From positions 25,613 through 89,612 of the forward strand of contig JAXGXY010000004.1 in NCBI GenBank assembly GCA_040772545.1: a DNA stretch of 64,000 nt. The letters run 5' to 3'. This document shows, one piece after another, positions 1 through 62,219 of the stretch (position 1 is its first letter; every line of letters starts with the position of its first letter). The stretch comes from Christensenellales bacterium. Lineage in GTDB: Bacteria; Bacillota; Clostridia; Christensenellales; UBA1431. Under the pieces are notes generated by a model that did no database searches, had not been told where the DNA came from, and saw only the letters and a program-made list of their open reading frames with translations. The position numbers were made by a program, and so were the translations under genes.

Positions 1-1
1 T

Positions 2-778
2 ATCCGCTCGAACCCGGCGCAGCCGCGGCGGACGTTCAGCGATCAATCCATCGAGGAGCTGGCGCTTTCCATACGCAGTTACGGGCTGTTACAGCCGGTC
101 TCCGTGCGCATGTGCGGCCAAAACGACTACGAACTCATCGCCGGGGAGCGCAGGCTAAGGGCCGTAAAGAGGCTCGGGGAGAAAAAAATCAGCGCCATCG
201 TATTTCCGGCACAAGAGAAAGAGAGCGCGATCCTCGCCCTGGTCGAGAACCTGCAGCGCGAGGACCTGAACTATTTCGACGAGGCCCAGGCCTATTACGA
301 GATCCTGCGCGAACACGGAATGACGCAGGAGGAATTGGCGCGCTGCCTGTGCAAGAACCAGTCGACCGTGGCCAACAAGCTGCGCCTTTTGCGCGTGGGA
401 AGGCCGGTGCGCGAGGTTGCGGAGAAAAACGGGCTTACCGAGAGGCACGTGCGGGCGCTGCTGCGGCTTGCCGACGAAAAGACCCAGCTTTTGATCGCGC
501 AAAAAGCCGCCGCGCAGACGCTTTCCGTGAAGCAAACGGAAGCGCTGGTCGAACGCGCCGTGGAAGAGGTGACCCGCGGGAAAAAACCCAATGTGCGCCT
601 TATTCACAGGGACTACCGCCTGTTTGTCAATTCGATAAGGAGCACCGTGAAACAGCTGAACACGCAGGGGCTGAACGTGGATTTTACGACGAAGGATTTG
701 GGGGAATCCATTGAGATAAAGGTTGTCGTTTCAAAATCATTGAAAGGAGAGAGTGTGAGAGGTAGGGGGATCCGCTAA
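2..778 (+). CDS. ParB/Noc-family DNA-binding protein (ParB paralog upstream of soj); 5' end runs off the window
   Basis: Frame 2 is open from nt 2. The translation IRSNPAQPRRTF..ELALSIRSYGLLQPVSVR, ELIAGERRLRA and VENLQREDL are ParB N-terminal box motifs. These are followed by an HTH (QEELARCLCKNQSTVANKLRLL). The position directly upstream of soj-parB mirrors noc-soj-spo0J. Track ORF 104..778 is only the internal-Met version. Confidence 0.85.
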   Translation: MRSNPAQPRRTFSDQSIEELALSIRSYGLLQPVSVRMCGQNDYELIAGERRLRAVKRLGEKKISAIVFPAQEKESAILALVENLQREDLNYFDEAQAYYEILREHGMTQEELARCLCKNQSTVANKLRLLRVGRPVREVAEKNGLTERHVRALLRLADEKTQLLIAQKAAAQTLSVKQTEALVERAVEEVTRGKKPNVRLIHRDYRLFVNSIRSTVKQLNTQGLNVDFTTKDLGESIEIKVVVSKSLKGESVRGRGIR

Positions 779-1022: not shown

Positions 1023-1799
1023 TTGTCCAAAGTGATGGCCGTAGCCAACCAAAAAGGCGGTGTGGGGAAGACGACGACCACCGTAAACTGCAGCGCCGCC
1101 CTTGCTCTGCGGGGGAAACGCGTGCTGGTGGTGGACGTCGACCCGCAGGGAAACTCCACGAGCGGACTGGGGCTGAACAGGGACGACGGGCAACTCTCGG
1201 TCTACGACGTGCTGGTGAACGGCGCCCCGATCGAAGACGCGGTATTGCCCACGCAGGTGGAGGGACTTTTCGCCGTCCCTTCGGCGGTGAAGCTAGCGGG
1301 CGCCGAAGTGGAAATGGTTTCGATGGAACGGCGCGAGTACATCGTCAAGAACGCGCTGAGGAAAATCCGCGGCGGGTACGACTTCATCTTCATGGACTGT
1401 CCCCCTTCGCTGGGGCTGTTGACGGTCAACGCCCTGACCGCGGCCGATACGGTGCTGGTCCCCATCCAGTGCGAATACTATGCGCTCGAGGGCGTCACGC
1501 AGCTCATCAACACGATACGCCTGGTAAAAAAGCGGCTCAACCCCGGCCTGGAAATAGAAGGCGTCCTGCTCACGATGTTTGACCCGAGGACGCGGCTGTC
1601 GCTGCAGGTGGTGGACGAGGTGAAGGCGTATTTCAAGCATAAGGTCTTCAGTTCGCTCGTCCCGCGCAATGTGCGGCTGGGGGAAGCGCCCAGCTTCGGG
1701 ATGCCCATCATGCTCTACGATTCCCAGTGCGCCGGGGCGCGCGCGTACGAGTATCTGGCCGAAGAGATCATAGAAAAGAACGAGGAGGCGGCGGTATGA
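1023..1799 (+). CDS. soj: Chromosome partitioning ATPase Soj/ParA
   Basis: Deviant Walker A motif MAVANQKGGVGKTTTTVN, plus VLVVDVDPQGNST and ParA-type C-terminal motifs. The TTG start gives an N-terminal length like Bacillus Soj. GGAG lies 9 nt upstream. Confidence 0.95.
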   Translation: MSKVMAVANQKGGVGKTTTTVNCSAALALRGKRVLVVDVDPQGNSTSGLGLNRDDGQLSVYDVLVNGAPIEDAVLPTQVEGLFAVPSAVKLAGAEVEMVSMERREYIVKNALRKIRGGYDFIFMDCPPSLGLLTVNALTAADTVLVPIQCEYYALEGVTQLINTIRLVKKRLNPGLEIEGVLLTMFDPRTRLSLQVVDEVKAYFKHKVFSSLVPRNVRLGEAPSFGMPIMLYDSQCAGARAYEYLAEEIIEKNEEAAV

Positions 1800-2680
1800 G
1801 CGCAAAGCAGCAGCGGCGGCTAGGAAAGGGGCTCCAGGCGCTTATAGGGTCCGAAGAACCCGTATGGGACGAGCGGCAGCCCGGCGAAAAGGGCGTGCGC
1901 CTCATCGACGTCCTGCGCATCGATCCCAACCCCAAGCAGGCGCGCAAACGCTTCGACAAGGAGGCGCTCGAAGGCCTCGCGCAATCCATAGCGATCCACG
2001 GCGTGATCCAGCCGCTGATCGTCGGGGAACAGGGGGAAAGGTACCGCCTGATCGCGGGCGAACGCCGGTGGCGGGCCGCCAAAATGGCGGGCCTGGACAG
2101 GGTGCCCGCCATCGTGACCGACATGGAGGACCGCGCGCAGGTGGAGGTATCGCTGGTGGAGAACCTTCAGCGCGAGGACCTCAACCCGCTCGAAGAGGCG
2201 GCGGGCATCAGATTCCTGATAGAAGAATACGGCCTGACGCAGGAGTCCGCGGCCGAGCGCGTCGGGAAGAGCCGCAGCGCCATAGCGAACGCGCTGAGGC
2301 TTTTGACGCTGCCTTCGCCCGTACAGGACCTGATCTGGACGGGGGAGTTAAGCGCAGGCCACGCGCGCGCCCTGGTCGGGATCGAAGACCAGGATCTTCA
2401 GCAGCGCATGGCAAAAAAGGCGGTCGAAGACGGGCTGTCGGTGCGCGAGATGGAAGCGCTTAAAAGAGACGTGCAGCCCGCGAGGCGCAGGAAGGCCGGC
2501 GATGAGGCGATCCCGCTGGAACTCTTCGAGATGCAGGAGTGCCTGCAAAAAGCGACAGGGATGCGCGTGCGGATCGTGGGAAGCACAAACAGGGGCAGGA
2601 TCACGATAGAATACTACAACAGGGAAGAGATCGAACGGCTCTACGCGATCTTGCAGGACAAAGACGAATGTTTCACGTGA
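1796..2680 (+). CDS. parB: Chromosome partitioning protein ParB/Spo0J
   Basis: MSAKQQRRLGKGLQALI..IDPNPKQARKRFD..LIAGERRWRAAK..VENLQREDLNPLEEA, HTH and C-terminal dimerisation region. The ATG at 1796 overlaps the soj stop (ATGA). The track start at 1727 is an unlikely extension. Confidence 0.95.
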   Translation: MSAKQQRRLGKGLQALIGSEEPVWDERQPGEKGVRLIDVLRIDPNPKQARKRFDKEALEGLAQSIAIHGVIQPLIVGEQGERYRLIAGERRWRAAKMAGLDRVPAIVTDMEDRAQVEVSLVENLQREDLNPLEEAAGIRFLIEEYGLTQESAAERVGKSRSAIANALRLLTLPSPVQDLIWTGELSAGHARALVGIEDQDLQQRMAKKAVEDGLSVREMEALKRDVQPARRRKAGDEAIPLELFEMQECLQKATGMRVRIVGSTNRGRITIEYYNREEIERLYAILQDKDECFT

Positions 2681-2684
2681 AACG
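2669..2684. promoter_or_regulatory. parS: parS centromere site (15/16 match to TGTTTCACGTGAAACA), overlapping the parB stop codon
   Basis: tGTTTCACGTGAAACg. The 14-bp palindromic core is perfect. The parB TGA (2678-2680) lies inside it. Bacillus also carries a parS inside spo0J. Confidence 0.85.
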
Positions 2685-2686
2685 CG

Positions 2687-3110
2687 CCGGAGCAAACTCC
2701 GCACCATCGTCGGAGCAAACTCCGCACCGCTCACCTTCGCGCAAGCGCAAAGGCTCGCTCGCTCCGTTGCTCCTCCTCTTCCCCGCAAAGCTGCGCTTTG
2801 CGGGGAGTTGTTCGGGCGGAGCTTCGTAGGATTGTCCGGGCGAGGCATCGCGGCAAGTTGCTTGGGTGGGGCTTTGCGGGGGTTGTTCGGGATGGGCTTC
2901 GCTCGTCGGAGCAAACTCCGCACCGCTCACCTTCTCGCAAGCGCAAAGGTTCGCTCGCTCCGTTGCTCCTCCTCTTCCCCGCAAAGCTATGCTTTGCGGG
3001 GAGTTGTTCGAGCGGAGCTTCGTAGGATTGTCCGGGCGAGGCATCGAAGCAAGTTGCTTGGGCGGGGCTTCACGGGAGATGTTTAAGCAGGGCTTCGAGT
3101 GATGGTTCGG
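2687..3110 (-). repeat. Type I hairpin-cassette repeats, two tandem ~196-bp units
   Basis: CGGAGCAAACTCCG hairpins occur at 2688, 2711 and 2907. CCCCGCAAAGC-nnn-GCTTTGCGGGG hairpins occur at 2781-2805 and 2977-3001, giving a 196-bp period. The sequence is the reverse complement of modules in 8994-10161. Confidence 0.9.
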
Positions 3111-3328
3111 ACGGGGCATTGGGGAATTCCTTAGGGAAAGCCTTCGCGAGCGCAGCGCGTTACCTCATCTTCCTGCACAGCGCCGCTATGCTGGGGTTTC
3201 GGCGCGAAGGGCTCTGTAGTATTATTTAAGCGGGGCTGCGAAGGGGTTTGGAAGGCGTAAACAGACACCGCGCAACCCACACTGCACGCGGTTATATGCG
3301 GCGCAAGAGAAGAAACCCGTAAACGGAT

Positions 3329-3358
3329 AGAAGGGCGCGAACCGCGCCCTCTTCTTTT
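3329..3358 (+). terminator. Orphan rho-independent terminator with no CDS directly upstream
   Basis: GAAGGGCGCG-aac-CGCGCCCT(C)TTC GC-rich stem followed by CTTCTTTT. The nearest upstream plus-strand CDS (parB) ends about 650 nt earlier. Confidence 0.5.
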
Positions 3359-3436
3359 ACTTGCCGTCTTAAGCGGTTGATTGTTTCCCCGGGAAGAAGT
3401 TCTCGAGAGTATACGAACGCGTTATTCTGGCACCCG

Positions 3437-3452
3437 CGTTTCACGTGAAACA
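3437..3452. promoter_or_regulatory. parS: Second parS site (15/16), 3 nt beyond the cvpA stop
   Basis: cGTTTCACGTGAAACa. It has the same perfect 14-bp core as 2670-2683. Confidence 0.8.
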
Positions 3453-3453
3453 G

Positions 3454-4155
3454 TCAGAGTACCCCTCCGATCAGGGATAACAGGAAGTTGGAGTTGTAGA
3501 AGAACGGCGCGAGCAAAGACCCGTCGATGTACTGGGCGATGGACTCGCCGGGCAGCACGGTGATGATGATAGGCGCGAGCATGAAGACGGCGAAAACGAT
3601 CAGCACGCCGCGTACGAGCCCGAGCGCGCCGCCGAGCAGCGAATTGAACTGCTTGAGCACGGGCAGGCGCGTGACGTAGTTGGTCGCGTTAATGACGACG
3701 GAGAGGATCAGCCGGAACAACAGGAAAAGGACGACGAAGCTGATGATGCCCAGCAGCACGTTGACGATCGTGACGTTGAAATAGTCGCCGAGCGTGGTCG
3801 CGTTCTGCGAAGCGAGCGCCTGGTTGGCGAGGTTGCTTTGCAGCGCCGATTCGAAGGGCGGCGGCAGGTTCGCGTTGTTCACGACGGTGTCGATCTGTTC
3901 GGGCGTGAGCTTGCTGACCAACTGGGACGCGAGGTCCACGTTGTAGATATGCTCGCTGCCCTCGGCGTATACCGATAAAGAGCTCAGGACGGTGGAGCCG
4001 AGGAAACGTGCGAGCACGGGATGAAGGATGTAGGCCAAAAAGGCCGAAACGAAAAACGAAACGAATCTGAGCAAGGTTATCGTGAACCCGCGCACAGCGC
4101 CCGAAAAAACGGAGAACGCGATGATGGCGATGATGATTATATCCAGCAAATTCAT
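3454..4155 (-). CDS. cvpA: CvpA-family membrane protein
   Basis: The N-terminus MNLLDIIIIAIIAFSVFSGAVRGFTITLLRF is typical of colicin V production protein family members. There are multiple TM segments. Confidence 0.75.
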   Translation of the reverse strand: MNLLDIIIIAIIAFSVFSGAVRGFTITLLRFVSFFVSAFLAYILHPVLARFLGSTVLSSLSVYAEGSEHIYNVDLASQLVSKLTPEQIDTVVNNANLPPPFESALQSNLANQALASQNATTLGDYFNVTIVNVLLGIISFVVLFLLFRLILSVVINATNYVTRLPVLKQFNSLLGGALGLVRGVLIVFAVFMLAPIIITVLPGESIAQYIDGSLLAPFFYNSNFLLSLIGGVL

Positions 4156-4190: not shown

Positions 4191-5306
4191 CTAGGGCAGG
4201 GAGACGAGGTAGCAGTCCTGCCCTGAAAAGGCCAGCACCCTGGAGCCGCAGACGGGGCCGACCCGGTCGATCGTGATGCCGAGCGGATAGGATTCGTCCT
4301 GCCGGCCTTCTAAATTATATACATAGACGGTCCCGGGCGTAAAGCAGTAAATCCTGTCGTTTCCCAGAAGCACATGGAAGCATTCGGGAGGCAGATACAA
4401 CAGGGATTCGCTCATTCCGTAGGAAATCAGGCGCGCCATCGGGTATTCGAACGCGTTGACGCCCTCTTTCAGCGGCGGGGTCAGCACGATGAGGGGTTTG
4501 CCGCTCGCGCCCATTTTCACGTCGTGGATGTTCCACCCGTACACCAGCTGCGAGGAGGCCAGGGCGCCCTTGTAGTCGTAGCACATCACGTGGGTGGACC
4601 CGAGGGCGTAGACATCGTCCGGCGTGAAGAGCGCGCCCTTGACCAGATGCGTGTCCACGGTGATGAGCCCGCTTATCGTGCTGCCGCCCGTATAGGTGGA
4701 GATGCGCGAAACGGGCGTGCCGGCCGAAGTGTCCAGCGTAAGGATCCAGATCATCTTCAGCGTGTCGTCCACGCCGAAAGCCACGGCGTGCTGCGCCCCC
4801 ATGTCGATGGTGTTTACGTCGGCGCCGGATGCGTCGATCACGGTCATGTCGGAGCCCTGCGGCGTCCTGCGGCAGACGCACACCAGCGTTTCCGAACAGG
4901 ACACGGCGCTTATGGTGCCCAAAAACTCCCTTTGAAAAAGGGCCTTGCCCTTCATATCGTATACTTTGAGCATGGACGGCGTATATGCGGCCGCCAGCGA
5001 AGGAGAAAGCGCTAGCTTCACGTCGTCTCCCGCGAAGTCCGCATACCACAGCTCGTCGCCGGAGGCGTTGAGCACGTGCACGGCCCCGTCTTTATGGTAT
5101 GCGATCCCGGTATCGCACACGGCGAAACTGTCGCTGGCCGAAAACGGCAGGGCCACGTTGGATTCCGCCAGGTTTGGCTTTCGCGGGAGGAATAAAAACA
5201 GTCCGCCCGCGACCGCGAGAAGCGCGCAAAGGCCGAGAATCAAATATTTAAGCCGCGGTTTCGGCTTTCGTTTCCTCGCAGCCCTCCGGGTCCGCTCCTG
5301 AACCAT
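4191..5306 (-). CDS. Membrane-anchored hypothetical protein with a beta-rich extracytoplasmic domain (possibly DUF5711-like; family not certain)
   Basis: Basic N-terminus (RRAARKRKPKPR) followed by one TM helix (YLILGLCALLAVAGGLFLF). Codon position 3 is GC-rich. It lies 35 nt upstream of cvpA on the same strand. Confidence 0.6.
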   Translation of the reverse strand: MVQERTRRAARKRKPKPRLKYLILGLCALLAVAGGLFLFLPRKPNLAESNVALPFSASDSFAVCDTGIAYHKDGAVHVLNASGDELWYADFAGDDVKLALSPSLAAAYTPSMLKVYDMKGKALFQREFLGTISAVSCSETLVCVCRRTPQGSDMTVIDASGADVNTIDMGAQHAVAFGVDDTLKMIWILTLDTSAGTPVSRISTYTGGSTISGLITVDTHLVKGALFTPDDVYALGSTHVMCYDYKGALASSQLVYGWNIHDVKMGASGKPLIVLTPPLKEGVNAFEYPMARLISYGMSESLLYLPPECFHVLLGNDRIYCFTPGTVYVYNLEGRQDESYPLGITIDRVGPVCGSRVLAFSGQDCYLVSLP

Positions 5307-5427
5307 AAGCTCTCAAACCTCCGTTTTTGCCGTACCGCACACCGCAGCTTGCCGGGCCTGCCTCCCGCAAACCGTCATCGGTCCGCCTGTGTCTATTATA
5401 GTACCAACCGCGTGGTTTCACCAGCTT

Positions 5428-6312
5428 CTATTGGCCGGCGGGCGCGAGGACCGTCACCGCGGAAGGGAGCACCTGTATCGTGAGCGCGGTTTCGACGGAC
5501 ATCTCCCCGTCGGCGTTGGCAAACGCGGGAGCCTCGGCCCGTATCGTCAGGCGGGTGCACGTGTAATGCGACAGCCCGCGCACGTTCTTTTTCAGGTGGG
5601 TGCCCCTGATATAGCTGGGCAGCAGGGAAAGCACCCGAAGGCGCGAGAACCGCTCGGCCAGCACCACGTCCAGCAGCCCGTCGTCCAGGCGCGCGGGGGG
5701 TGCGACGTGAAAGCCGCCGCCGTAATAGCGGCCGTTGCATACGGCGATGAGCAGGATCTCGTGGCGCGTAAACGAACCGTCTTCGTGTTCTAATTCGATG
5801 TTCACGAGCTTAAGCTTGAACAGCGTGATGATCGTCGCTATGAAGTAGGCCGGGAGCCCGCGCAGCAGTGGAATCCTTCGCGCCGTGTTCACGACCTGCG
5901 CGTCGAAGCCGAGGTTGGCCACGTTGAGGAACATGCGGCGGTTGATCTTCCCCGCGTCGATGGTGCGCCGGTTTCCTTCGAGGATGATCTTGAGCGCCTT
6001 GAGCGGGTCCTTGGGGATGCCGAGGGATTTTATGAAATCGTTGCCCGTCCCCGCGGGGATCACGCCGATGACGGCGTTCGAACCGTGCACGCCCTCCAGC
6101 AACTCCCTGAGCGTGCCGTCCCCTCCCACAGAGACGATTGCGTCGTAACCCCGCGCGCTGGCCCTGCGCGCGATGTTGACCGTATGCCCGGGGCGCATGG
6201 AGAACGCGGTGTCGTATTCGACGCCCTGTACGTTGAGATGCGCGCACAGCTTGTCCATGACGCGTACGGACCTGCCGTGGCCCGCGACGGGATTGATGAT
6301 GAAAAACAGCAT
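5428..6312 (-). CDS. Diacylglycerol/lipid kinase family protein (YegS/BmrU-like)
   Basis: MLFFIINPVAGHGRS, VSVGGDGTLRELLEG and IPAGTGNDF are DAGK catalytic-domain motifs. Confidence 0.85.
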   Translation of the reverse strand: MLFFIINPVAGHGRSVRVMDKLCAHLNVQGVEYDTAFSMRPGHTVNIARRASARGYDAIVSVGGDGTLRELLEGVHGSNAVIGVIPAGTGNDFIKSLGIPKDPLKALKIILEGNRRTIDAGKINRRMFLNVANLGFDAQVVNTARRIPLLRGLPAYFIATIITLFKLKLVNIELEHEDGSFTRHEILLIAVCNGRYYGGGFHVAPPARLDDGLLDVVLAERFSRLRVLSLLPSYIRGTHLKKNVRGLSHYTCTRLTIRAEAPAFANADGEMSVETALTIQVLPSAVTVLAPAGQ

Positions 6313-8993: not shown

Positions 8994-10161
8994 TCGACCT
9001 GTTTTCTATGTGGCGGCAGTATTTGCCGCGCACTCCATGGCAAAGTCCATCCCGAACAACTCCCGCAAAGCCTCGCCCGGACAATCCTACGAAGCCCCGC
9101 CTAAAACAAAACCTACGAAGCCCCGCCCGAACAACTTCCGACGAAGCCTATCCTGAAAAATCCCTGCAAAGCCCTACCAGAATGAACCCCCGCAAAGCGC
9201 AGCTTTGCGGGGAAGAGGAGGAGCAACGGAGCGGTGCGAAGAATCCCCGGAGAGCGCGGAGCGCAAAGGGGATTATGAGCGGAGCGAAGTTTGCTCCGAC
9301 GAGGGAGCGGTGCGAAGAATCCCCGGAGCGCGGAGCGCAAAGGGGATTATGAGCGGAGCGAAGTTTGCTCCGACGAGGGAGCGATGCGAAGAATCCCCGG
9401 AGCGCGGAGCGCAAAGGGGATTTTGAGCGGAGCGAAGTTTGCTCCGACGATGGTGCGAAGTTTGCTCCGACGAGCGAAGCCCAGCCAGAGCAATGCCCGC
9501 AAAGCCCCGCTTGGACAAACCTACGAAGCCCTGCCTAAAACAAAACCTACGAAGTCCCGCCCGAACAACTTCCCGCGAAGCCTATCCTGAAAAATCTCTG
9601 CAAAGCCCTACCAGAATGAATCCCCGCAAAGCGTAGCTTTGCGGGGAAGAGGAGGAGCAACGGAGCGGTGCGAAGAATCCTCGGAGCGCGGAGCGCAAAG
9701 GGGATTATGAGCGGAGCGAAGTTTGCTCCGACGATGGTGCGAAGTTTGCTCCGACGAGCGAAGCCCAGCCAGAGCAATGCCCGCAAAGCCCCGCTTTGAC
9801 AATCCTACGAAGTCCCGCCCGAACAACTTCCCGCGAAGCCTATCCTGAAAAATCTCTGCAAAGCCCTACCAGAATGAATCCCCGCAGAGCGCAGCTTTGC
9901 GGGGAAGAGGAGGAGCAACGGAGCGGTGCGAAGAATCCCCGGAGCGCGAAGCGCAAAGGGGATTATGAGCGGAGCGAAGTTTGCTCCGACGAGGGAGCGG
10001 TGCGAAGAATCCCCGGAGCGCGAAGCGCAAAGGGGATTATGAGCGGAGCGAAGTTTGCTCCGACGAGGGAGCAGTGCGAAGAATCCCCGGAGCGCGAAGC
10101 GCAAAGGGGATTATGAGTGGAGCGAAGTTTACTCCGACGATGGTGCGAAGTTTGCCCGACG
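8994..10161 (+). repeat. Type I hairpin-cassette repeat array (nested tandem repeats)
   Basis: There are three super-units, each with a CCCCGCAAAGC-nnn-GCTTTGCGGGG hairpin (9188-9212, 9622-9646, 9880-9904). These are followed by 3, 1 and 3 copies of a 74-bp unit, starting at 9236/9312/9386, 9669, and 9928/10002/10076. Boundaries are approximate. Confidence 0.9.
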
Positions 10162-11986: not shown

Positions 11987-14900
11987 ATGCGGGTCCTCTA
12001 TGTTAAGTATTCGACCCTCAGGAAGAGGGAATACCGCATCTGCACGCAGATCGTGGAGCGGGACGGCGCGCGGTTGGTGCGCAAGGTGCCCGCCGTGCCT
12101 GAAGCCCTTGCCCACGTGGAGGCGATGGCGCACAACGCGCGGCGCATGCGCGAGCGGACCGTGGGGCTGACGGTCCCGCCCTGCACGGTGGAGGGCGGCG
12201 CGTTCGAGACGCCCTATGTCGAAGGCGCGGCGCTGGATTGCCTGATTACGGAAGCGGCAAAAACGGGCGGCGCGGGCGGCGTTTGCCGTATCCTGGACGA
12301 TTACCGGGAACTGGTAAGGGCCCAGCCGCGGGTCGAAACCGACCCCGGCGCCTGCCCCGGCTTTGCCCGGTGGTTCGGCGAAAGCGTGGGCAGGGCCGAC
12401 TGCCTCGCGCTGGGGATGGTCGACCTCGTGACCGAGAACATCGTGTGCACGCCCGAAGGAAGCTTCGCCGCCATCGATTACGAATGGCTCTGCGACTGCC
12501 CCGTGCCCGTCGATTACGTCTTCCACCGCGCCGTGCGCCTGCTGTACCTGCACCACCGGGACGTATTAGAGCCCGTGATGACTCCGGGCGAAATGCTCGC
12601 GAGGCTCGGCGTAAGCCCCGCTTCCTCCGCCGCGTTCGAAGCCTGGGACAACAGGATGGACGAGCGCATCCAGGGGGACCCGCGCCTGCTCCCCGTCCCG
12701 CCCCAGTACCTGCGCGACAAGTCCCGGCCCTTCGGCGGGGCGGGCAGGCTCTACTACGACACGGGGGAAGGGTACAGCGAAAACAGGAGCATAGACGCCG
12801 AAGGACCCCTTTACCGGTTCGAACTCCCGCCCGGCACGCGGGTGAGGGGCCTCAGGTTCGACCCCTGCGAGGGCGCGTACTGCGCCGCCGTGATCCGCGA
12901 GGCCTGGGCAGAAACCGACGGCGGGCGCGTCCGCCTGCGGTGCGTCGGCGGGAACGCCGCGCTGAAGGAAGGGGACGCGTACGTCTTTGCGACCAGGGAC
13001 CCGCAACTGCTGTTTAATGCGCCCGCCGGCGCCGTTTTCGCGGTCGGTATCGCGGCGGACGTGCGGCGGCCGGAAGCGGACGAGCTAGAACGGGCGCTGA
13101 AAGCGCAGCAGGAAGAGGCGCAGGCGATAGAGGCTGGTCATGGCCGAAACCGGCCGGCGGCGGAAAAGGGGAACCGGGAGCCCGGCGGGGCGCTCCTTCG
13201 GCCGGCGGCGCGCATCGAGGCGCTGGGCCATGGCCGGTATCGCGCGACGGCCCCCGACCCGCAGTTTTGCATCGGGCGCGGGTACGAGCCGGGCATCCTG
13301 CGCGTGGACTGGGCGGGGGACGCGGACTTCATCCTGCCGCTGAGGCTCTACTACGATACGGGCGAAGGGTTTACGGAAAACGGCTTCTTTAACGTCGGCG
13401 CGCTGGGCGCGGAAGCCAAAAGCGGGCATTGCTACCTCCGCCTCGAAAAAAGGGCGTCGCAGCTCCGCCTAGACCCCGGGGAAGGAACGGGCGATTTTAT
13501 TCTGACCGCTTTTTCGGTGACGCGCCCCGCCCCGCGGAGGCTGAAGCGCGACGCAATAAATGCGTACGCCGAGATGCAGGGCGTTCCTTTAAACAAAGCC
13601 CGCAAAGCGTATTCAAAAGACCCGCGCGCGGCGCTGCAGACGCTCATTGACCAGGGGTGCCCGGAGGTTTACGACCCGGAAAGAGCGTACCGCAGCTGGA
13701 TGCGGTACGTGGAAGGCGAAGCGGCGCCGGCGGGCGCGGAAGGGTCCGTGCGCATCTCGGTCGTGGTGCCGGTGTACGAGACCGGCGAGGCCATGCTCCG
13801 GGAGATGATCGGGTCCGTGCGCGCGCAGAGCCACGGGAACTGGCAGCTCTGCATCGCCGACGGCGGCAGCCGTTCGCCCCACGTGCGAAGGGTCCTCGAG
13901 GAAGCCATGCGGTCCGACGCGCGCGTACGCGTCGCGTTCCTCCCCGAAAACCGGGGCATCGCGGGCAACAGCAACGCGGCGCTGGCCCTGGCCGAAGGCG
14001 AATACGTCGCGCTGCTGGACCACGACGACGTCCTCGTGCCATTCGCCCTTTCCGAGGCGGCCCGCGCGATCGCCGGGCACGACCCCGACATGCTGTATTC
14101 GGACGAGGACAAGCTCACGGCCGACGGGAAGAGGCGGTTCATGCCCCACTTCAAACCGGACTGGGACGCCGAGCTTCTGCGCTCGTGCAACTATGTCGCG
14201 CACCTCCTCGTGGCCAGGCGCGCGCTGGTGGAGGCGGTCGGCGGTTTCCGCGAGGGTTTCGACGGGAGCCAGGACCACGACCTGATCCTCAGGCTCAGCG
14301 AAAAGGCTAATAAGATCGTGCACATCCCCAAAGTGCTCTACCACTGGCGGAGCCACGCGAAATCAACGGCCCTGCATGCTGGCGCGAAGGACTATGCGGC
14401 CGAAGCGAGGCGAAGGGCGGTCGGCGAGCACTGCGCGCGCGCCGGTGTCCCCGCGCGGGTGGAAACAGACGGGCGCTACGGCATCCTGCGCGTCCGTTAT
14501 GAGATCAGGCACCGGCCTTTCGTTTCCGTGGTCATAATTGGCGGTGAGGACGGAGACCTGACGCGCCTGAGCGCGGAGGCCGCCGCGCGCGCCGCAGGCT
14601 GGGACGATTACGAGATCGTCGTGCTTTCACGCCGGACAGGCCTGCCCGCCGGCGACGGGCGCGCGCGCTTCGTGGAATGCGCGGGCCGGGGCCGCAAAGC
14701 CGTGCTTTACGCAGGGGCCGAAGCGGCGAAGGGGAACGTGCTCGTGCTGATGGAGGCCGGCGTCGCGCCGGTTTCCGAAGGCTGGATCGGCGCGCTGTAC
14801 GAGCTTGGTCAGCGGGAGGACGCGGGCGCGGTAGGGTGCCTTCTGCGCTACCCGAACGGGGCCCTGCTGCACGCGGGCGTCGTGCCGGGGTTCATAGGCG

Positions 14901-15247
14901 AAAGCGGGTACGTGGGGGACAGGCGCCCCGCGGACGACCCGGGGTACATGGCGCGCGTCCTCTGCGCGCGCGAGACTGCGGCGGTTTCCGCTGCGTGCGT
15001 GATGGTCGGGAAAAGGACGCTGCTTTATGCCCTTCGCGAAACGGAGGGCGACGACCCGGGCGACGTGGCGCTCTTTGCGGCGGTACGCAGATCGGGCAGA
15101 CGCGTCTATTACACGCCGCACGCCCAATGCGTTTGGCACGGCGTGACGGCGCTCCCCGTACAGGGACCGGCGGACGTCGTCGATGACCCGTTTTACAGCC
15201 CGCATTTTACCCGCAGCGTCGAACCCTACAGGATCAGGGAAGAGTAG
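11987..15247 (+). CDS. Multidomain glycosyltransferase: kinase-like N-terminal domain, two copies of an internal repeat, then a GT2 domain plus a second GT-like domain
   Basis: GT2 signature ISVVVPVYETGEAML..IADGGS..NRGIAGNSNAALALAEGEYVALLDHDD. The N-terminus has an APH/kinase-like IDYEW motif. LYYDTGEG(Y/F)(S/T)EN...LR(F/L)DP.EG is repeated at nt ~12749 and ~13346. Confidence 0.85.
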   Translation: MRVLYVKYSTLRKREYRICTQIVERDGARLVRKVPAVPEALAHVEAMAHNARRMRERTVGLTVPPCTVEGGAFETPYVEGAALDCLITEAAKTGGAGGVCRILDDYRELVRAQPRVETDPGACPGFARWFGESVGRADCLALGMVDLVTENIVCTPEGSFAAIDYEWLCDCPVPVDYVFHRAVRLLYLHHRDVLEPVMTPGEMLARLGVSPASSAAFEAWDNRMDERIQGDPRLLPVPPQYLRDKSRPFGGAGRLYYDTGEGYSENRSIDAEGPLYRFELPPGTRVRGLRFDPCEGAYCAAVIREAWAETDGGRVRLRCVGGNAALKEGDAYVFATRDPQLLFNAPAGAVFAVGIAADVRRPEADELERALKAQQEEAQAIEAGHGRNRPAAEKGNREPGGALLRPAARIEALGHGRYRATAPDPQFCIGRGYEPGILRVDWAGDADFILPLRLYYDTGEGFTENGFFNVGALGAEAKSGHCYLRLEKRASQLRLDPGEGTGDFILTAFSVTRPAPRRLKRDAINAYAEMQGVPLNKARKAYSKDPRAALQTLIDQGCPEVYDPERAYRSWMRYVEGEAAPAGAEGSVRISVVVPVYETGEAMLREMIGSVRAQSHGNWQLCIADGGSRSPHVRRVLEEAMRSDARVRVAFLPENRGIAGNSNAALALAEGEYVALLDHDDVLVPFALSEAARAIAGHDPDMLYSDEDKLTADGKRRFMPHFKPDWDAELLRSCNYVAHLLVARRALVEAVGGFREGFDGSQDHDLILRLSEKANKIVHIPKVLYHWRSHAKSTALHAGAKDYAAEARRRAVGEHCARAGVPARVETDGRYGILRVRYEIRHRPFVSVVIIGGEDGDLTRLSAEAAARAAGWDDYEIVVLSRRTGLPAGDGRARFVECAGRGRKAVLYAGAEAAKGNVLVLMEAGVAPVSEGWIGALYELGQREDAGAVGCLLRYPNGALLHAGVVPGFIGESGYVGDRRPADDPGYMARVLCARETAAVSAACVMVGKRTLLYALRETEGDDPGDVALFAAVRRSGRRVYYTPHAQCVWHGVTALPVQGPADVVDDPFYSPHFTRSVEPYRIREE

Positions 15248-15273: not shown

Positions 15274-15611
15274 AAACTCCCGGCTGTGCCGCGGGTTTCA
15301 AAAAAGCTTAAATGCAGGGGGTGTGGGGGATAATCCCCCACTTCCAATCCGATCTGACGACTCGCCGGAGCAAAATTTGCACCGCTCATCTTCGCGCGGA
15401 GCGCAAAGGCTCGCTCGCTGCGCTCCACCCCAAGCGGCAAGCCGCGAGGGGACCCCGGTTGCTCCTCCACTTCCCCACAAAGCTCCGCTTTGAGGGGGCC
15501 CCGGAGGCAGAAAAATGCCACATGGAGCGGCATTAAACCACAAAGGAAACCGTCGACAAGCCTCGAAGGGATTTGTCGAGGGCCAGAAACCCCCGGCTGT
15601 GCCGGGGGTTT
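15274..15611. repeat. Composite repeat: type II element (15299-15586) interrupted by a type I segment (~15362-15508), bracketed by a duplicated 25-bp hairpin
   Basis: AAACTCCCGGCTGTGCCGCGGGTTT (15274-15298) versus AAACCCCCGGCTGTGCCGGGGGTTT (15587-15611) match at 23/25. The inner ends align with the reverse complement of 62264-62425. The middle carries the CGGAGCAAA.. and CCCCACAAAGC..GCTTTGAGGGG modules. Confidence 0.85.
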
Positions 15612-31219: not shown

Positions 31220-31340
31220 GCAAAATCTCCTTACAGCGTAAAATGAAAACCCCCGTGGCACACGCAAAGGCCTGCCTGTGTCCGGCGGGTGATAAATTCG
31301 CACGTATTAATAATAAAGCATACAAACGGGCGGTTGTCAA

Positions 31341-31412
31341 CGTCGGAGCAAACTCCCCGTTGCATAATCGCCTTTGCGCTTGCGCAAAGGCGAGCGGGTG
31401 CGGAGTTTGCGC
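31341..31412 (+). repeat. Solo type I module (long imperfect hairpin)
   Basis: CGGAGCAAACTCC...CGCCTTTGCGC-tt-GCGCAAAGGCG...GCGGAGTTTGC. It matches the reverse complement of 2711-2760. Confidence 0.75.
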
Positions 31413-31420
31413 AGGCGGGG

Positions 31421-33890: not shown

Positions 33891-34844
33891 TCAGTATTTG
33901 CGGATGTCGCAGCCCCTGAGGTGGAAACGGCGCGTGTGCGCGGCGTCGAGCAGGCGGGAGACCATGCGCTCGCCGTAGCGTTCCTGTATCTCGTGAGGGA
34001 ACAGGTTGGTGGCCACGATGGTGTGCTTCGCCCTCAGGAGCCGCTCGTTGAACAGGGAAACGAAGTATTCCACGGTCACGTTGTTGTACAGGGGCTCGCT
34101 CCCCAGGTCGTCGCAGACCAGCAGGTCGGCGCCATACAGGGGAGAGAGGTCGGTCCCCGCGCCGAGATGCTTTTGCAGGCAGAATTCCCCGAGCGAAAAC
34201 GCGGTGAAGCGCAATACGTTAAATGACCTGTTCAAAAGACAGCCCGTGATGCAGTTGAGCAGGTACGTCTTGCCTAGCCCGGTGTTTCCGTAAAACAGCA
34301 GGTTGGGCTTTTCGTTTTCGGGAAACTCCTTCGCATATTCGAGGCAGATGTCCCGAAGCTGGCGCATGTACTCGCGCTGCGGCGTTTTCGACCCCGGCGG
34401 GATCTCGTTGGGGAACACGCCGAGGTCGAAGTTTTCGAAGCTCTGATTCTTCAATATCTCCTTATCGTTGGGCGCGTACCGCTCCTCGTTCAGGCGGCGG
34501 ACGAAACAGGCGCAGCGCGTCTTGACAGGGTTTCCCACGAAGCCGGTGTCCCGGCAGTCCGGGCAGCGGTAGGCCATCTCGAGGTAATCTTTCGGAAGGC
34601 CGGCGCTTTCGAGCAGCCCGGCGCGTTTTATGTAAAGCTCCTTTAATGCGTCCCCGGTCGCCTGCGCGTCGTCCGCGCCCGGACCGAAAAGGAGGCGCAG
34701 CCGCTCGTTTTCGAGTTCGGCAAGCGCCGGGCAGAGAGAAACGGCGTGGGAAAAACGCTTTTCCTGGGCCAGGCGGTTGCGCCTCTGCCGGGCCTCGAAG
34801 TCCGCGATCACCCGTACAAGCGCCGCATCGGCCATTGTCAACAC
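33891..34844 (-). CDS. DnaC/DnaI-like AAA+ helicase loader
   Basis: Walker A LLFYGNTGLGKTYL, Walker B DLLVCDDLGSE and an N-terminal Cys cluster (CPDCRDTGF..CAC). Confidence 0.8.
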   Translation of the reverse strand: MLTMADAALVRVIADFEARQRRNRLAQEKRFSHAVSLCPALAELENERLRLLFGPGADDAQATGDALKELYIKRAGLLESAGLPKDYLEMAYRCPDCRDTGFVGNPVKTRCACFVRRLNEERYAPNDKEILKNQSFENFDLGVFPNEIPPGSKTPQREYMRQLRDICLEYAKEFPENEKPNLLFYGNTGLGKTYLLNCITGCLLNRSFNVLRFTAFSLGEFCLQKHLGAGTDLSPLYGADLLVCDDLGSEPLYNNVTVEYFVSLFNERLLRAKHTIVATNLFPHEIQERYGERMVSRLLDAAHTRRFHLRGCDIRKY

Positions 34845-34854
34845 TCCTTTTTTA

Positions 34855-36351
34855 TTAGGACGCGCTCAGGTCGTCGAAATCCCTGTCCAGGCCGTTCTGT
34901 TCCGGGGGACGCTGGTCATAGTTCAGGCCGTCCAGCTTCTTGCGGGAGGCGCCAGACTGTCTGTTGGCCGTGTGGGTCCTGCGCTCCGCCCTGGCCTGTT
35001 CGAGCGTGAGCACGCCTTTTTTATGGTAATTGGACAGGAGCTTTTGCAGGAACTGCCAGGGCTGGTTGGCGCCGGCCGAGAGCTCTGCGGCGAAGAGCAG
35101 AAGGCCTTCCTCCATGCCCCACGTGTCGCGCCATTTCGTGTAGGCGGCGCGGTCGCTCTGGCCGGGGGAACGAACGATCCCGGCGCGCCGGAAAACTTCG
35201 CCGAGCGCGCCGTCCAGCGCCCGTTCACATTCGAGCATCTCTTCGGCTTCGGAACAGGAATGGATGTTGCTGTTGTGCCAGCCTTCGAGCAGGCTGTTGA
35301 CGGCGGCGAAGGTGGCCCGCCCGTTTTCCGAGGCCCGGGTACAGGCGGCGAGTACGGTTTCGTGGTCCATGCCCCATTCGCGGGTCCAGCGCGCGTACTG
35401 TATGTTCTGCGCCTGAGTGGGCGAGACGCTCTTTTGGCCGAGGGCCAGCAGCACTTCGCGAAGCTTCGCACCAATCGTATCGCGCGCGGAGAAATGCGCC
35501 TCGATGTCGGCCGCTTTTACGAAGCCCTGTTCATAGAGCGAAGCGAGCACGCGATGGACGTAGGCGAGGTTCGGCTTCTGTATCTTGGTCGTTTCACGGC
35601 AGGCGAGCAGGATCGCGTCCAGCGTGAACCCCCATTCCTCCGTCCATTTGTTGAAAAGCCTGTTTTCGTCGACGGTGGGCGTGCGGAACACGCCTATGTG
35701 GGAGAGGACCTTCTGCGTCTGCGTGCTTTCGGAAGCGTGGCGGGCGATGCGCCGTTCCGCGTCCTCCAGCGTGCGCACCCCGTCGTTTGCCCAGCTGAGC
35801 GCCACCTTGTTCATGTAGGCAAGGCTCACCTGCCGGCCCTTGCGCTCGACGCAGTGGGAGACCATGTGCAGCACGGCCTCGGGTTCCATCCCCAGCACCT
35901 CGATCCAGTCGTAGATCTTCTGGAGGTCCTGCGTGTGCAGCAGCCGCCCGCCGAGCACGGACTGCAGGGAAATGTTGAAATCTGAGTACCGGGCCAGCTC
36001 CGGCGGGGTCTCGTAGTTGTTCTGGTACAGCCGGTTTTTGACGTTATAGAATTCGACGGTGAAAGGGTCCTGGGAGACGATGCGCACCAGTCCGTCCCGC
36101 GCCCAATAGGAAAACGCGTTGTACACCGTCTCGGTCTCGAGGCCGAGCGCGAGGGCGAAGGCTTCCGACGTCGGCTCCGCCGCGCCGGGGTGCAGGCACT
36201 GGTACAGTCCGTAGACGTATACTTTCACGAAATCCCCGGGGGCTTTGGTCAGGAATTCCTGGATGAACAAGTTTTCGAGCGGCGTGACGTCAAAGAGTAT
36301 GGCGCTGTCCGACAGTTTGCAAAAAGCCATGGCTTCTCTCCCGCATGACAT
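34855..36351 (-). CDS. DnaD/DnaB-like replication initiation/restart protein with several DnaD C-terminal repeats
   Basis: A repeated W..WG......I..A motif (YTKWRDTWGMEEGLLLFA, YARWTREWGMDHETVLAA, FNKWTEEWGFTLDAILLA). The alternative start at 36330 has a GGGAGAG RBS. Confidence 0.75.
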   Translation of the reverse strand: MSCGREAMAFCKLSDSAILFDVTPLENLFIQEFLTKAPGDFVKVYVYGLYQCLHPGAAEPTSEAFALALGLETETVYNAFSYWARDGLVRIVSQDPFTVEFYNVKNRLYQNNYETPPELARYSDFNISLQSVLGGRLLHTQDLQKIYDWIEVLGMEPEAVLHMVSHCVERKGRQVSLAYMNKVALSWANDGVRTLEDAERRIARHASESTQTQKVLSHIGVFRTPTVDENRLFNKWTEEWGFTLDAILLACRETTKIQKPNLAYVHRVLASLYEQGFVKAADIEAHFSARDTIGAKLREVLLALGQKSVSPTQAQNIQYARWTREWGMDHETVLAACTRASENGRATFAAVNSLLEGWHNSNIHSCSEAEEMLECERALDGALGEVFRRAGIVRSPGQSDRAAYTKWRDTWGMEEGLLLFAAELSAGANQPWQFLQKLLSNYHKKGVLTLEQARAERRTHTANRQSGASRKKLDGLNYDQRPPEQNGLDRDFDDLSAS

Positions 36352-38886: not shown

Positions 38887-39521
38887 GAGGACTGTTTATC
38901 ACATTCGAAGGTCCGGACGGCGGCGGAAAGAGCACGCAGATACGGCTGCTGAACGAGTGGCTCACGGCCTGCGGGCACGAAGTGCTGGTGACGCGGGAGC
39001 CCGGCGGCTGCAAGGTCGCCGAGGAGATCAGGGGGCTTATCCTTGATATCCGCCACACGAGCATGACCCCTGTTACGGAGGCGCTCCTCTACGCCGCGGC
39101 GCGCGCGCAGCACGTGGAGGAAGTCATCGCGCCGGCGCTCGAAGCGGGGAAGACCGTGATTTGCGACAGGTTCCTGGACTCGTCGCTGGCGTACCAGGGT
39201 GCAGGTCGGAAGCTGGGCTTTACGACGGTGGCGGACATGAACCGCCACGCGACGCACGGCCTCGTTCCTGAGATCACCTTCCTTTGCCGGATCAACACGG
39301 AACTCTCGCGCCTGCGGGTGTGGGGGCGATCCGTCCCCGACCGGCTGGAAAGCGAGAAAACGGATTTCCAGGACCGCGTGCTCAGGGGGTTCGACGAACT
39401 TGCGAGGCGTTACCCGGAGCGCATAAAGGAAATCGACGCGGGGCGGGACATACAGGTGGTCTACGACGAGATCATCGGACACGTGCGCGCGCTGCTCGAA
39501 CGGAGGGAGCACGGGGCGTGA
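38883..39521 (+). CDS. tmk: Thymidylate kinase
   Basis: FITFEGPDGGGKSTQ P-loop and DRFLDSSLAYQG. ATGA overlap with the upstream stop. Confidence 0.95.
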   Translation: MRGLFITFEGPDGGGKSTQIRLLNEWLTACGHEVLVTREPGGCKVAEEIRGLILDIRHTSMTPVTEALLYAAARAQHVEEVIAPALEAGKTVICDRFLDSSLAYQGAGRKLGFTTVADMNRHATHGLVPEITFLCRINTELSRLRVWGRSVPDRLESEKTDFQDRVLRGFDELARRYPERIKEIDAGRDIQVVYDEIIGHVRALLERREHGA

Positions 39522-40501
39522 GCATACCGCAACAGACCCTGTTCGTTTCCGTACTGAGCGGACGCGTCCCGCACGCCGTGCTCATCACGGGCGAGAGGGG
39601 CGCGGGCAAACGGAATACGGCCGAGCGCCTCGCCGGGATGCTGCTGTGCACGGGGCACCCGAAACCCTGCGGCGCCTGCCGCGGCTGCAGGCTGCGGGAA
39701 ACCGGGTCGCACCCCGACCTCCTGCGCGTTTCGGAGCAGAAGGGCACGATAAAAATCGAGACCGTGCGCGATCTTATCGAAGAGCTTTCGAAAAAGCCCT
39801 ACGGCGAAGGACACCGCGCCGTCCTCATCGAGAACGCGCAGGCGATGACCGTGCAGGCGCAGAACTGCCTGTTAAAAACGCTGGAGGACCCGCCCGACGG
39901 GACCGTGTTCGTGCTGACCTGCCGCAGCGAGCGGGAACTGCTTCCCACCGTCGTTTCGCGGTGCCGGGTCGTGAGGATCACGGGCGAGGGCGAGGCTGCG
40001 GCGCGCGTGCGCCTGGAAAAGGAGTTGGGGACCGACGCCCGCGAGGCCGCCCTCTTTGCGCGGCTGGGCGAGGGCTATTTCGAAAGGGCGCGGGAATGGG
40101 CGTTAGAAAAAGGGCCGATGGAACTGCGGCACGGGCTGTGGTCCGTGCTGATGAGGCTGTCCGAACCGGGAGCGGATCCCCTCGCCGGTTACGCGCTTTG
40201 CAAGGACCGCGCAGAGGAAGCTGGCCTTATCCTTTCGGTCTTATCCGGGATATTGGCCGAGGTCCTGCTATACAAACAGGGAGGCGGGGCAATCAGCCCG
40301 GACCACGCCCGGGACACGGCGGCCCTTTCGAAGAAGTTTTCGGGCCCCGGCTTGCAGCGGTGCCTGGAGTGCGCCGCGAGAGCGGGCGCGCTGATCGAGG
40401 TCAACGCGCACCGGCAGATGCTCATAGAGGACCTGCTGCTCAAAATAAAGGACGCAATGGAGGATTCACTATATGACCAAAGTGATCGGCGTGCGCTTTA
40501 A
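39518..40501 (+). CDS. holB: DNA polymerase III delta-prime subunit
   Basis: PHAVLITGERGAGKRNTA, a Zn-module-like CGACRGC, and the tmk-holB order. The GTG start overlaps the tmk stop (GTGA). Confidence 0.85.
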   Translation: MSIPQQTLFVSVLSGRVPHAVLITGERGAGKRNTAERLAGMLLCTGHPKPCGACRGCRLRETGSHPDLLRVSEQKGTIKIETVRDLIEELSKKPYGEGHRAVLIENAQAMTVQAQNCLLKTLEDPPDGTVFVLTCRSERELLPTVVSRCRVVRITGEGEAAARVRLEKELGTDAREAALFARLGEGYFERAREWALEKGPMELRHGLWSVLMRLSEPGADPLAGYALCKDRAEEAGLILSVLSGILAEVLLYKQGGGAISPDHARDTAALSKKFSGPGLQRCLECAARAGALIEVNAHRQMLIEDLLLKIKDAMEDSLYDQSDRRAL

Positions 40502-47988: not shown

Positions 47989-48276
47989 GGTGCTAGCACC
48001 CGGCCAGACTATAAAACAAGCCGCGCCGCCGGGGTCGAGCGTTGTTTTGTCAAATAGAAGCTTTACCCGGAAGATTTCCACAGCGCTTTACCCAGGCAAA
48101 TCCTTCAAAACCTTGCACGAATGAATCCCACAGGGCCTCACCTGAACAAACCGCACAAAGCGAAGCTTTGGGCGGAAGAGGAGGAGCAACGGAGCGGTGC
48201 GAGGAACCCCCGACGCGCGCAGCGCATAGGGGGTTACGGGCGAAGCGGAGTTTGCTCCGACGTGGGTGCTAGCACC
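47989..48276 (+). repeat. Type I repeat element (48001-48264) bracketed by a duplicated 12-bp palindrome
   Basis: GGTGCTAGCACC occurs at 47989-48000 and again at 48265-48276. The interior carries a degenerate H1 hairpin (48151-48175), AAGAGGAGGAGCAACGGAGCG and the terminal CGGAGTTTGCTCCG (48246-48259). Confidence 0.85.
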
Positions 48277-61122: not shown

Positions 61123-61433
61123 TCACGCGATATTTCAAATAAATTGAAGAAACGGCGATTCCGCACAGCAAAATCGTCAAGGATTGGGTGAAATCAATAG
61201 AAAATGGGAAGTAGTGGCATCAAATGTGATAATGTATCAATATTTTTTGCCATTAACGCAGGTTTTGACATTGGAAAAGTTACCCGTTATTTCATAAAAT
61301 ATAAACAGCCAGCAAGGTATATTTTTCAAAAGGTCATACGACGTAATGTGATAAATAAACTTCGATATAATGGTAGCTTTTGGGTCCGGAGCGGCACTAA
61401 AGGGGAAGAGCATTATATTTGGGGGGTTGTATC

Positions 61434-62219
61434 ATGGGAAACAGGGTGAAAGTACTCATCGCAGACGACAATTCTCATCAGCTGGCGCAGTGCATGACCT
61501 ACCTCAAGGAGCAACAAGATGTAGAAGTCGTGGGCGTGGCTTCCGACGGGGTTGCCGCGTGGGATGCGTTGGAGAACAATGCCGTAGATGTGTTGATAAT
61601 GGACCTGATCTTACCTAAGCTGGACGGGTTTGGCGTGCTGGAAAGGCTGATTACCAGGACGGACATGCCCAAACCCGACGTCATGGTCCTCTCCGCCTTG
61701 TCGCAGGAGAGCGTTATTCGCCGCGCGTGCGAAATGGGCGTAAAATACTATATGATTAAGCCGTTTGACATCGAAACGCTCTATCACCGGATCATAGACC
61801 TGCACAACGGGCAGACGCCCATTCGAAAGCCCCAGGTCATGGCAGAGCCCAGCCTGCGGTCGAAGCCTTGTTCCAGGGACGAGAAGATTACCGGCGTGTT
61901 CCTTACCATTGGCATCCCCGCCCACATCAAGGGCTACCACTACCTGCGCGAAGCCGTGAAGGCGGTGATGGACGACGGAGACATTATCAACCGGATCACG
62001 AAAGAGCTGTATCCGACGGTGGCAAAACGGTTCAGCGCGACGCCGAGCAAGGTCGAGCGCGCGATACGCCATGCGATAGAGGTGGCCTGGGCCCGAGGGC
62101 GTATCGAGAACATCAACGGAATTTTCGGATATAATATCTATAACAAACACGACAAACCGACCAACGGAGAATTCATCGCGTTGATCGCGGACAAGCTTAA
62201 ACTGGAGATGACGGCTTGA
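61434..62219 (+). CDS. spo0A: Sporulation master regulator Spo0A
   Basis: Receiver domain (KVLIADDN..DVLIMDLILPKLDG) plus the diagnostic Spo0A C-terminal region (GIPAHIKGYHYLREAV...ITKELYPTVAKRF.TPSKVERAIRHAIEVAW). Confidence 0.97.
   Translation: MGNRVKVLIADDNSHQLAQCMTYLKEQQDVEVVGVASDGVAAWDALENNAVDVLIMDLILPKLDGFGVLERLITRTDMPKPDVMVLSALSQESVIRRACEMGVKYYMIKPFDIETLYHRIIDLHNGQTPIRKPQVMAEPSLRSKPCSRDEKITGVFLTIGIPAHIKGYHYLREAVKAVMDDGDIINRITKELYPTVAKRFSATPSKVERAIRHAIEVAWARGRIENINGIFGYNIYNKHDKPTNGEFIALIADKLKLEMTA

Follow-up and report, generated by a model that had tools for sequence, protein, structure and literature searches.

The junction between the partition gene parB (spo0J) and the convergent membrane-protein gene cvpA, in a 64,000-nucleotide stretch of Christensenellales bacterium DNA (GenBank assembly GCA_040772545.1, contig JAXGXY010000004.1, positions 25,613 to 89,612; hereafter the window), carries two parS sites that bracket a spacer partly filled with hairpin-rich repeats. 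With a probability of roughly 0.85, we read this as an origin-proximal partition locus of Christensenellales-related Clostridia in which a pair of parS sites, ancestral to the clade and kept for ParB binding, had its spacer invaded by repeats at a later time. The locus is an ordinary conserved two-site centromere situated in a repeat-prone convergent intergenic region, and this description replaces the picture, favoured in an earlier sequence-only reading of the window, of a mobile element that had split the centromere.

The left site, parS-1, consists of the 16-mer tGTTTCACGTGAAACg at 2669-2684 and the right site, parS-2, of the 16-mer cGTTTCACGTGAAACa at 3437-3452. Both match the consensus TGTTTCACGTGAAACA, known from B. 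subtilis and numerous other bacteria, the B. subtilis-type 16-bp consensus being quoted as TGTTNCACGTGAAACA in PMC2346475 and PMC7022226. They share a perfect 14-bp core, GTTTCACGTGAAAC, which occurs in exactly two copies in the 64 kb (2670-2683 and 3438-3451), bearing out the earlier call of two near-consensus sites with a common core. The scan for further sites which that reading had suggested returns only parS-1 and parS-2 when run over the 64 kb with the 14-mer at up to 2 mismatches (0.20 matches expected from shuffled sequences), and a 16-mer scan with 3 mismatches adds a single poor match, at 61428. The origin-proximal, parA/parB-linked position expected of such sites holds as well, both lying directly downstream of the noc-like, soj and spo0J genes. 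As had been noticed, the TGA stop of parB (2678-2680) falls within parS-1, which encodes the last four codons of the gene with the stop (TGT TTC ACG TGA). The stop codon of the convergent cvpA occupies 3454-3456, placing it 1 nt from the 16-mer of parS-2 and 2 nt from the 14-bp core, instead of the 3 nt originally counted. Both parS sites are genuine, to judge by their sequence and conservation, and form an old conserved pair.

The age of the pair follows from its relatives. A scan of species-representative genomes with the window's ParB returned no close relative, the best match being 45% identical, and its loci served only to show that distant Clostridia, too, have parS-like sites in pairs. 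A ParB protein search and contig look-ups instead supplied syntenic junctions at graded ParB identities, which were scanned for the 16-mer. All relatives with a contig reaching across the junction show the two-site layout, at ParB identities of 62-99%, though the spacers are unrelated (the contigs of L013 and L020 stop short of the second-site position). In the relatives nearest to the window, repeats separate the sites: these lie 835 bp apart in L018 (ParB 99% identical; two 196-bp units and about 66 bp of extra subrepeats), 572 bp in L009 (98%; one 196-bp unit), 653 bp in the sister lineage L037/L039 (97%) and 832 bp in L010/L011 (76%). The remaining lineages are free of repeats, the terminal hairpin module of the family (H1) being absent from all loci at ParB identities of 73% or less. 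Between their sites they hold only a terminator hairpin (L012, ParB 68%, 138 bp apart), a frameshifted glyoxalase pseudogene (L014-16, 66%, 528 bp), an intact glyoxalase gene (L019, 66%, 512 bp) or a short AT-rich sequence with a hairpin (L017, 62%, 76 bp).

An ortholog of parS-1 lies 1-14 nt after the parB stop, or overlaps it, in 11 of the 11 related lineages and strains examined, and in L009, L010, L012, L014, L018, L019 and L039 the cvpA stop has an ortholog of parS-2 at a distance of 1-6 nt. In L012, for instance, the two sites are found 1 nt past the parB stop and 6 nt before the cvpA stop, respectively. In L017 both sites are found on the parB side of the glyoxalase gene that precedes cvpA. 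The glyoxalase-family gene lies at 1675-2112 between the sites in L019, at 4887-5399 in frameshifted form between those of L014, and at 5003-5482 between parS-2 and cvpA in L017. Since it is inside the pair, pseudogenised or outside it depending on the lineage, the junction has been repeatedly rearranged around the sites. In a ParB tree built by neighbour joining, in which Christensenella minuta served as the outgroup, the window, L009, L039 and L010 form one repeat-bearing clade within repeat-free two-parS lineages. Because repeat-free relatives have two sites and the repeat-bearing clade nests among them, the two-site state predates the repeats. The sequence-only reading had proposed searching the parB-cvpA junctions of relatives for an empty site with a single parS, and no such junction was found among the syntenic relatives that span it, the repeat-free ones all being two-site. 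Its fallback, two functional parS sites that flank a repeat-rich spacer at a distance of about 768 bp, is the version that the conserved pair supports. In Christensenella minuta (L044/L045), cvpA is not downstream of parB, and no parS-like site with up to 3 mismatches lies within 4 kb either side of parB; the paired-site junction is therefore a trait of the window's clade rather than of the order as a whole, and Christensenella minuta cannot date the pair's origin.

The bases that flank the shared core, and the end of parB, differ between lineages. The window has T...G at the left site and C...A at the right, a pattern which had been taken as the signature of a split site. It is not general, as the sister lineage L037/L039 (about 95-96%) has TGTTTCACGTGAAACG on the left and the perfect TGTTTCACGTGAAACA (T...A) on the right, L010 has CGTTTCACGTGAAACA (C...A) at both sites, and L012 has C...A and T...A. 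Insertion of a repeat at the edge of the left site accounts better for the G at its position 16. In repeat-free relatives ParB terminates with ..FLQGEG or ..FLEGE immediately ahead of parS; the repeat-bearing clade alone has a parB that reads four codons into parS and uses the internal TGA as its stop, ending in ..DECFT in the window and ..DERFT in L010 (3127-3138). The overlap of the parB stop with parS is, judging from these termini, a derived state. A metagenome scan for parS followed by CGGAGCAAAC within 30 nt gave 17 loci, of which only L037 belongs to this lineage, the others being chance matches in unrelated organisms. Among these, L023 and its relatives, from a high-GC gut organism, have three parS sites in about 750 bp (4735-5495 in L023). 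A 24-nt local tandem repeat there, starting GGAGCAAAC directly after one parS, was judged a chance resemblance to H1.

The spacer between the two 16-mers measures 752 bp (2685-3436). It had been described as a non-coding, repeat-rich insert of about 750 bp, and it is indeed non-coding, since near-identical strains have spacers whose lengths differ by 196 bp and by about 66 bp, and neither figure is divisible by 3; the repeats, however, occupy only 2685-3097 (about 410 bp), in the form of an extra H1 terminal hairpin followed by two tandem 196-bp units. The first hairpin (CGGAG-CAAA-CTCCG) begins at 2688, 4 nt after the left 16-mer, a distance already given correctly in the sequence-only reading. 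The two units are mutually 91-95% identical, and in each H1 comes first, followed by a GCGCAAGCGC-type hairpin, then by a perfect CCCCGCAAAGC/GCTTTGCGGGG hairpin and finally by four subrepeats of 24-26 bp; perfect 12-nt inverted arms lie at 2780-2806 and 2976-3002. The first unit together with the extra H1 (2685-2902) has a minimum free energy of -104.9 kcal/mol (z = -2.6). To the right of the repeats, the sequence at 3098-3436 has no further copy elsewhere in the window; its part up to 3331 aligns to L009, L018 and L037, and this unique part of the spacer has no counterpart in L010. A terminator follows, which L037 has in the same place with the stem GAGCGTG..CACGGCTC instead of GGGCGCG..CGCGCCC, a T run again following. 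Beyond it the L037 DNA differs from that of the window and ends in an inverted H1 that abuts parS-2. Rfam gave no match at gathering thresholds over the whole window, and a snoRNA match (E = 0.28) in a permissive Rfam scan of 2600-3520 is meaningless. An independent small gene in the spacer is unsupported, because a promoter scan of 2400-3700 found no sigma-70-like promoter.

The repeats of the spacer belong to a family found at five loci in the window, all of them between open reading frames (ORFs), with 16 H1-like matches in total; the other four are at 9040-10160, 15361-15497, 31338-31417 and 48141-48269. The first of these is an array in opposite orientation with three units, each containing 26-bp subrepeats, the CCCCGCAAAGC hairpin, 74-bp sub-units in up to three copies, and H1 copies. 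It fills the 1264 bp that separate a PolyA_pol/HD gene from an SBP_bac_3 gene, an interval which in the sister L039 measures 582 bp. The element at 15361-15497 is absent from L039 altogether (window 15288-15512 against L039 15099-15153). The empty site in L039 carries the hairpin CTGACG-acatgtg-CGTCAG, part of which lies inverted beside an H1 end in the window, so that the boundaries are rearranged and show no clean target duplication. A minimal 77-bp copy is seen at 31341-31417, where imperfect inverted H1 ends surround a perfect central palindrome, CGCCTTTGCGC-TT-GCGCAAAGGCG. Within the parS spacer, strains at 98-99% ParB identity have site distances of 572, 768 or 835 bp, the differences consisting of one 196-bp unit and about 66 bp of subrepeats. 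The length of the spacer thus varies between near-identical strains because repeat units are gained and lost. A 122-nt stretch of repeat is 90% identical between the window and L010, where parB DNA is only 76% identical, which argues that the family is either spreading actively or being homogenised. The element at the right site of L010 is inverted, and 90% identical to the window repeat. Recombination between the two parS palindromes that flipped the spacer was considered as a cause of this orientation, but L010 offers no equivalent of the unique part of the window spacer to support it. No transposase or recombinase was found in a Pfam scan of 20 window ORFs beyond 27 kb or among the genes over the first 21 kb of the sister contigs.

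The working of the locus can be sketched from what is known of the ParB family. A ParB dimer would nucleate at each 16-bp palindrome, bind cytidine triphosphate (CTP) through its GERRxR box, close into a clamp and slide onto flanking DNA; the ParB translation of the window carries LIAGERRWRA, which contains the GERRxR box of the CTP-binding N-terminal domain (Pfam: ParB_N 5.7e-31, HTH_ParB 7e-37). The two sites, 768 bp apart, would feed one partition complex near the origin, which would interact with Soj and probably load SMC there. ParB binding and the loading of clamps are extrapolated here, as is whatever influence the repeats may have on that loading; the conservation of the pair, its age relative to the repeats and the dynamics of the latter are read from the junctions themselves. 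The ancestral spacer was presumably short, about 60-120 bp, and held a transcription terminator. A convergent spacer of this kind, with its terminator, tolerates insertions, and depending on the lineage it has come to contain a gene, a pseudogene or repeats. That of the window's lineage was later invaded by dispersed, modular, hairpin-rich repeats of the repetitive extragenic palindrome (REP), bacterial interspersed mosaic element (BIME) and BOX kind or of the miniature inverted-repeat transposable element (MITE) kind, which still expand and contract by gain and loss of units.

Several points weigh against this interpretation. The function assigned to both sites is deduced from sequence and conservation, and the neighbour-joining tree that places the repeat-bearing clade is based on a single protein and was not bootstrapped. 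The single unit of L009, and with it some of the length polymorphism, could be a product of tandem-repeat collapse in a short-read metagenome assembly. Lastly, inverted H1 ends abut both parS sites in L010 and L037/L039, an arrangement that, considered by itself, resembles terminal inverted repeats with a flanking duplication; in the window, L009 and L018 there is no H1 end at the right flank.

Why the repeats lie so close to the sites is a question of its own. It could be that the repeat family prefers to insert beside perfect palindromes, or the hairpins that they extrude, with its H1 end facing the palindrome, parS being a recurrent landing site. The spacer would then be a hot spot owing to parS and not merely to a tolerant convergent intergenic region. 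We regard this as a tentative proposal and, on the whole, an unlikely one. In a small sample evaluated post hoc, H1 hairpins occur at a distance of 0-2 nt from a perfect palindrome, counting parS, more often than would be expected by chance. H1 ends are found 0-1 nt from the inner parS edge at the left site of the window and both sites of L010 and of L037/L039, the left element of L010 being of a different subfamily. At 48262-48276 a further H1 end (48262) sits 2 nt from the perfect 12-bp palindrome GGTGCTAGCACC, upstream of a Gate-domain (SpmA-like) gene. Two of the six outer H1 termini in the window abut a perfect palindrome of at least 12 bp, against a background of 0.0017 per position (binomial estimate about 4e-5, post hoc), and the hairpin at the empty 15.3-kb site of L039 points in the same direction. 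However, the sample is very small, the remaining four termini have no adjacent palindrome, and several of the parS junctions may be orthologous and thus not independent. The ORFs scanned contain neither transposase nor recombinase, and selection sparing the central terminator would likewise push tolerated insertions to the edges of the spacer. An insertion 3' of a fixed short target, as in IS200/IS605-like elements, was rejected, as the flanks GAAACG, GAAACA, CACCCA, CCAATG, GTCAA and CGACT share no motif. If the preference were real, it would explain why, in several lineages, independent elements of different subfamilies are found at the inner edges of the two parS sites. A further consequence would be that parS palindromes are recognisable in vivo, perhaps extruded or single-stranded, to the machinery that spreads mobile DNA or repeats. 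The association of H1 with palindromes, should it extend genome-wide, would offer a modest clue to how such repeat families choose their targets.

The pair itself may derive from a much older duplication of a single parS that preceded the diversification of the clade and had no connection with the present repeats, for example through a short tandem duplication or the insertion of a terminator. We consider this quite doubtful, although distant Clostridia (L001, L002, L006-L008) have paired parS-like sites 36-66 bp apart and the shortest site distances in the clade are 76 and 138 bp. No signature of such an event remains, identical cores are to be expected from selection for ParB binding whatever their origin, and Christensenella minuta has no parS within the 4 kb scanned on either side of parB. 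This reading concerns origin only, and the working of the locus is unchanged by it.

The ancestral-pair interpretation has least to fear from the model that the sequence-only reading preferred, which is refuted to the point of being extremely improbable: a single perfect parS hit by a repeat element that copied the 14-bp core as a target-site duplication, the present sites being the halves of a split centromere, would account for the identical cores, for the H1 hairpin end 1 nt from the flank of the left core and for the outward H1 ends in L010 and L037/L039, but repeat-free relatives from three separate lineages (L012, L014-16, L017 and L019) keep two sites. This is the very outcome that the sequence-only reading had named as fatal to its model. 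These repeat-free two-site lineages are outgroups to the repeat-bearing clade. In L012, L014 and L019 the sites hold the same positions at both stops, in L019 with a whole glyoxalase gene between them, and in L017 the repeat-free pair, 76 bp apart, lies upstream of that gene. The right site of L037/L039 is moreover a complete perfect 16-mer, relatives yielded no single-site junction, and 14-16 bp would be unusually long for a target-site duplication.

Table 1. Features of the partition locus and of the parS spacer in the window.
Feature	Positions	Strand	Basis or remarks
Noc-like ParB paralogue, 5' end cut by window edge	1..778	+	Pfam ParB_N + HTH_ParB
soj/parA, partition ATPase	1023..1799	+	Pfam AAA_31, CbiA, ParA
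parB/spo0J	1796..2680	+	ParB_N + HTH_ParB; TIGR00180 186 bits
parS-1, TGTTTCACGTGAAACG	2669..2684		15/16 to consensus, perfect 14-bp core
H1, the terminal hairpin module of 21 nt (CGYCGGAGCAAACTCCGCACC), twice in tandem	2685..2728	+	repeat-family search
Two tandem 196-bp modular repeat units	2707..3097	+	units 2707-2901 and 2903-3097
Lineage-specific spacer, degenerate subrepeats and unique DNA	3098..3331	+	conserved only in same or sister species
Putative intrinsic terminator for parB-operon transcription	3332..3360	+	8-bp stem, 7 G-C pairs (3332-3350), T tail
Right-hand spacer part	3361..3436		unrelated to sister-lineage DNA at this place
parS-2, CGTTTCACGTGAAACA	3437..3452		15/16 to consensus, perfect 14-bp core
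cvpA, membrane protein of the Colicin V production family	3454..4155	-	Pfam Colicin_V 1e-21; synteny with relatives

The genes around the junction (Table 1) are those of a chromosomal partition region. The product of the truncated gene at the window edge scores 281 bits against NCBIfam nucleoid_noc, under the 315-bit cutoff. In relatives GidB is found upstream of the noc-like gene, and trmE, gidA and gidB precede the locus in those that are syntenic. Further along the window, replication-initiation genes lie at 33891-36351 (one DnaI-like, with a weak Bac_DnaA ATPase match, and one of DnaB_2/DnaD type), holB at 39284-40501 and spo0A at 61419-62219, a set that fits a sporulating Firmicute chromosome close to the origin. 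Two other observations are unconnected with the locus. ARAGORN reports a tRNA-Val (gac) at 12140-12222, probably in error, since the call falls inside a glycosyltransferase ORF of 1086 aa (11987-15247). The long ORF 43225-46077 contains, at 45045-45636, tandem repeats with periods of 12 bp (GCCCACGCCGAA), 36 bp and 258 bp, which suggest a repetitive protein region.

For an uncultured clade of Clostridia the ancestral pair brings a gain in annotation: the positions of both centromere sites are fixed, and the 3' end of parB is seen to read into parS, which supplies its stop. The lineages also provide, ready-made, a range of distances between the two parS sites (76 to 835 bp), some with structured repeats in the spacer and some without, which is material for studying whether spacing or hairpin-rich DNA affects the loading and sliding of ParB.

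Both components of the junction have counterparts among known systems. By their architecture the repeats recall enterobacterial REP/BIME and the BOX elements of Streptococcus pneumoniae, being dispersed, strictly intergenic hairpin modules with a variable number of modules per copy (H1 in one to four copies, the 24-26-bp subrepeats in four to seven) and a copy number that varies between strains; unlike them, they have no similarity to curated RNA families in Rfam and no associated transposase in the ORFs scanned. They also resemble MITEs, in that the copy at 31341-31417 is bounded by imperfectly inverted H1 modules with a palindrome at its centre and the inverted H1 ends of L010 and L037/L039 point outward at both parS sites. 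In contrast to MITEs, no target-site duplication is seen at the termini at 31341, 48262, 10160 and 15363, and the apparent duplication at parS is already present in relatives without repeats.

The sites themselves are like those of other chromosomal ParABS centromeres, with the same 16-bp palindrome, an origin-proximal place beside soj-spo0J and a small number of copies. Two perfect parS sites roughly 0.8-0.9 kb apart lie upstream of parB, near parAB, in mycobacteria (PMC2346475), and two sites are listed for Hyphomonas neptunium and for chromosome I of Burkholderia cenocepacia (table in PMC7022226). In contrast to those centromeres, both sites lie here downstream of parB, where they bracket the convergent terminator region between parB and cvpA, and one of them provides the stop codon of parB. 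The spacer, too, is unusually plastic by comparison: according to the lineage it holds a gene, a pseudogene, arrays of repeats or nothing more than a terminator.

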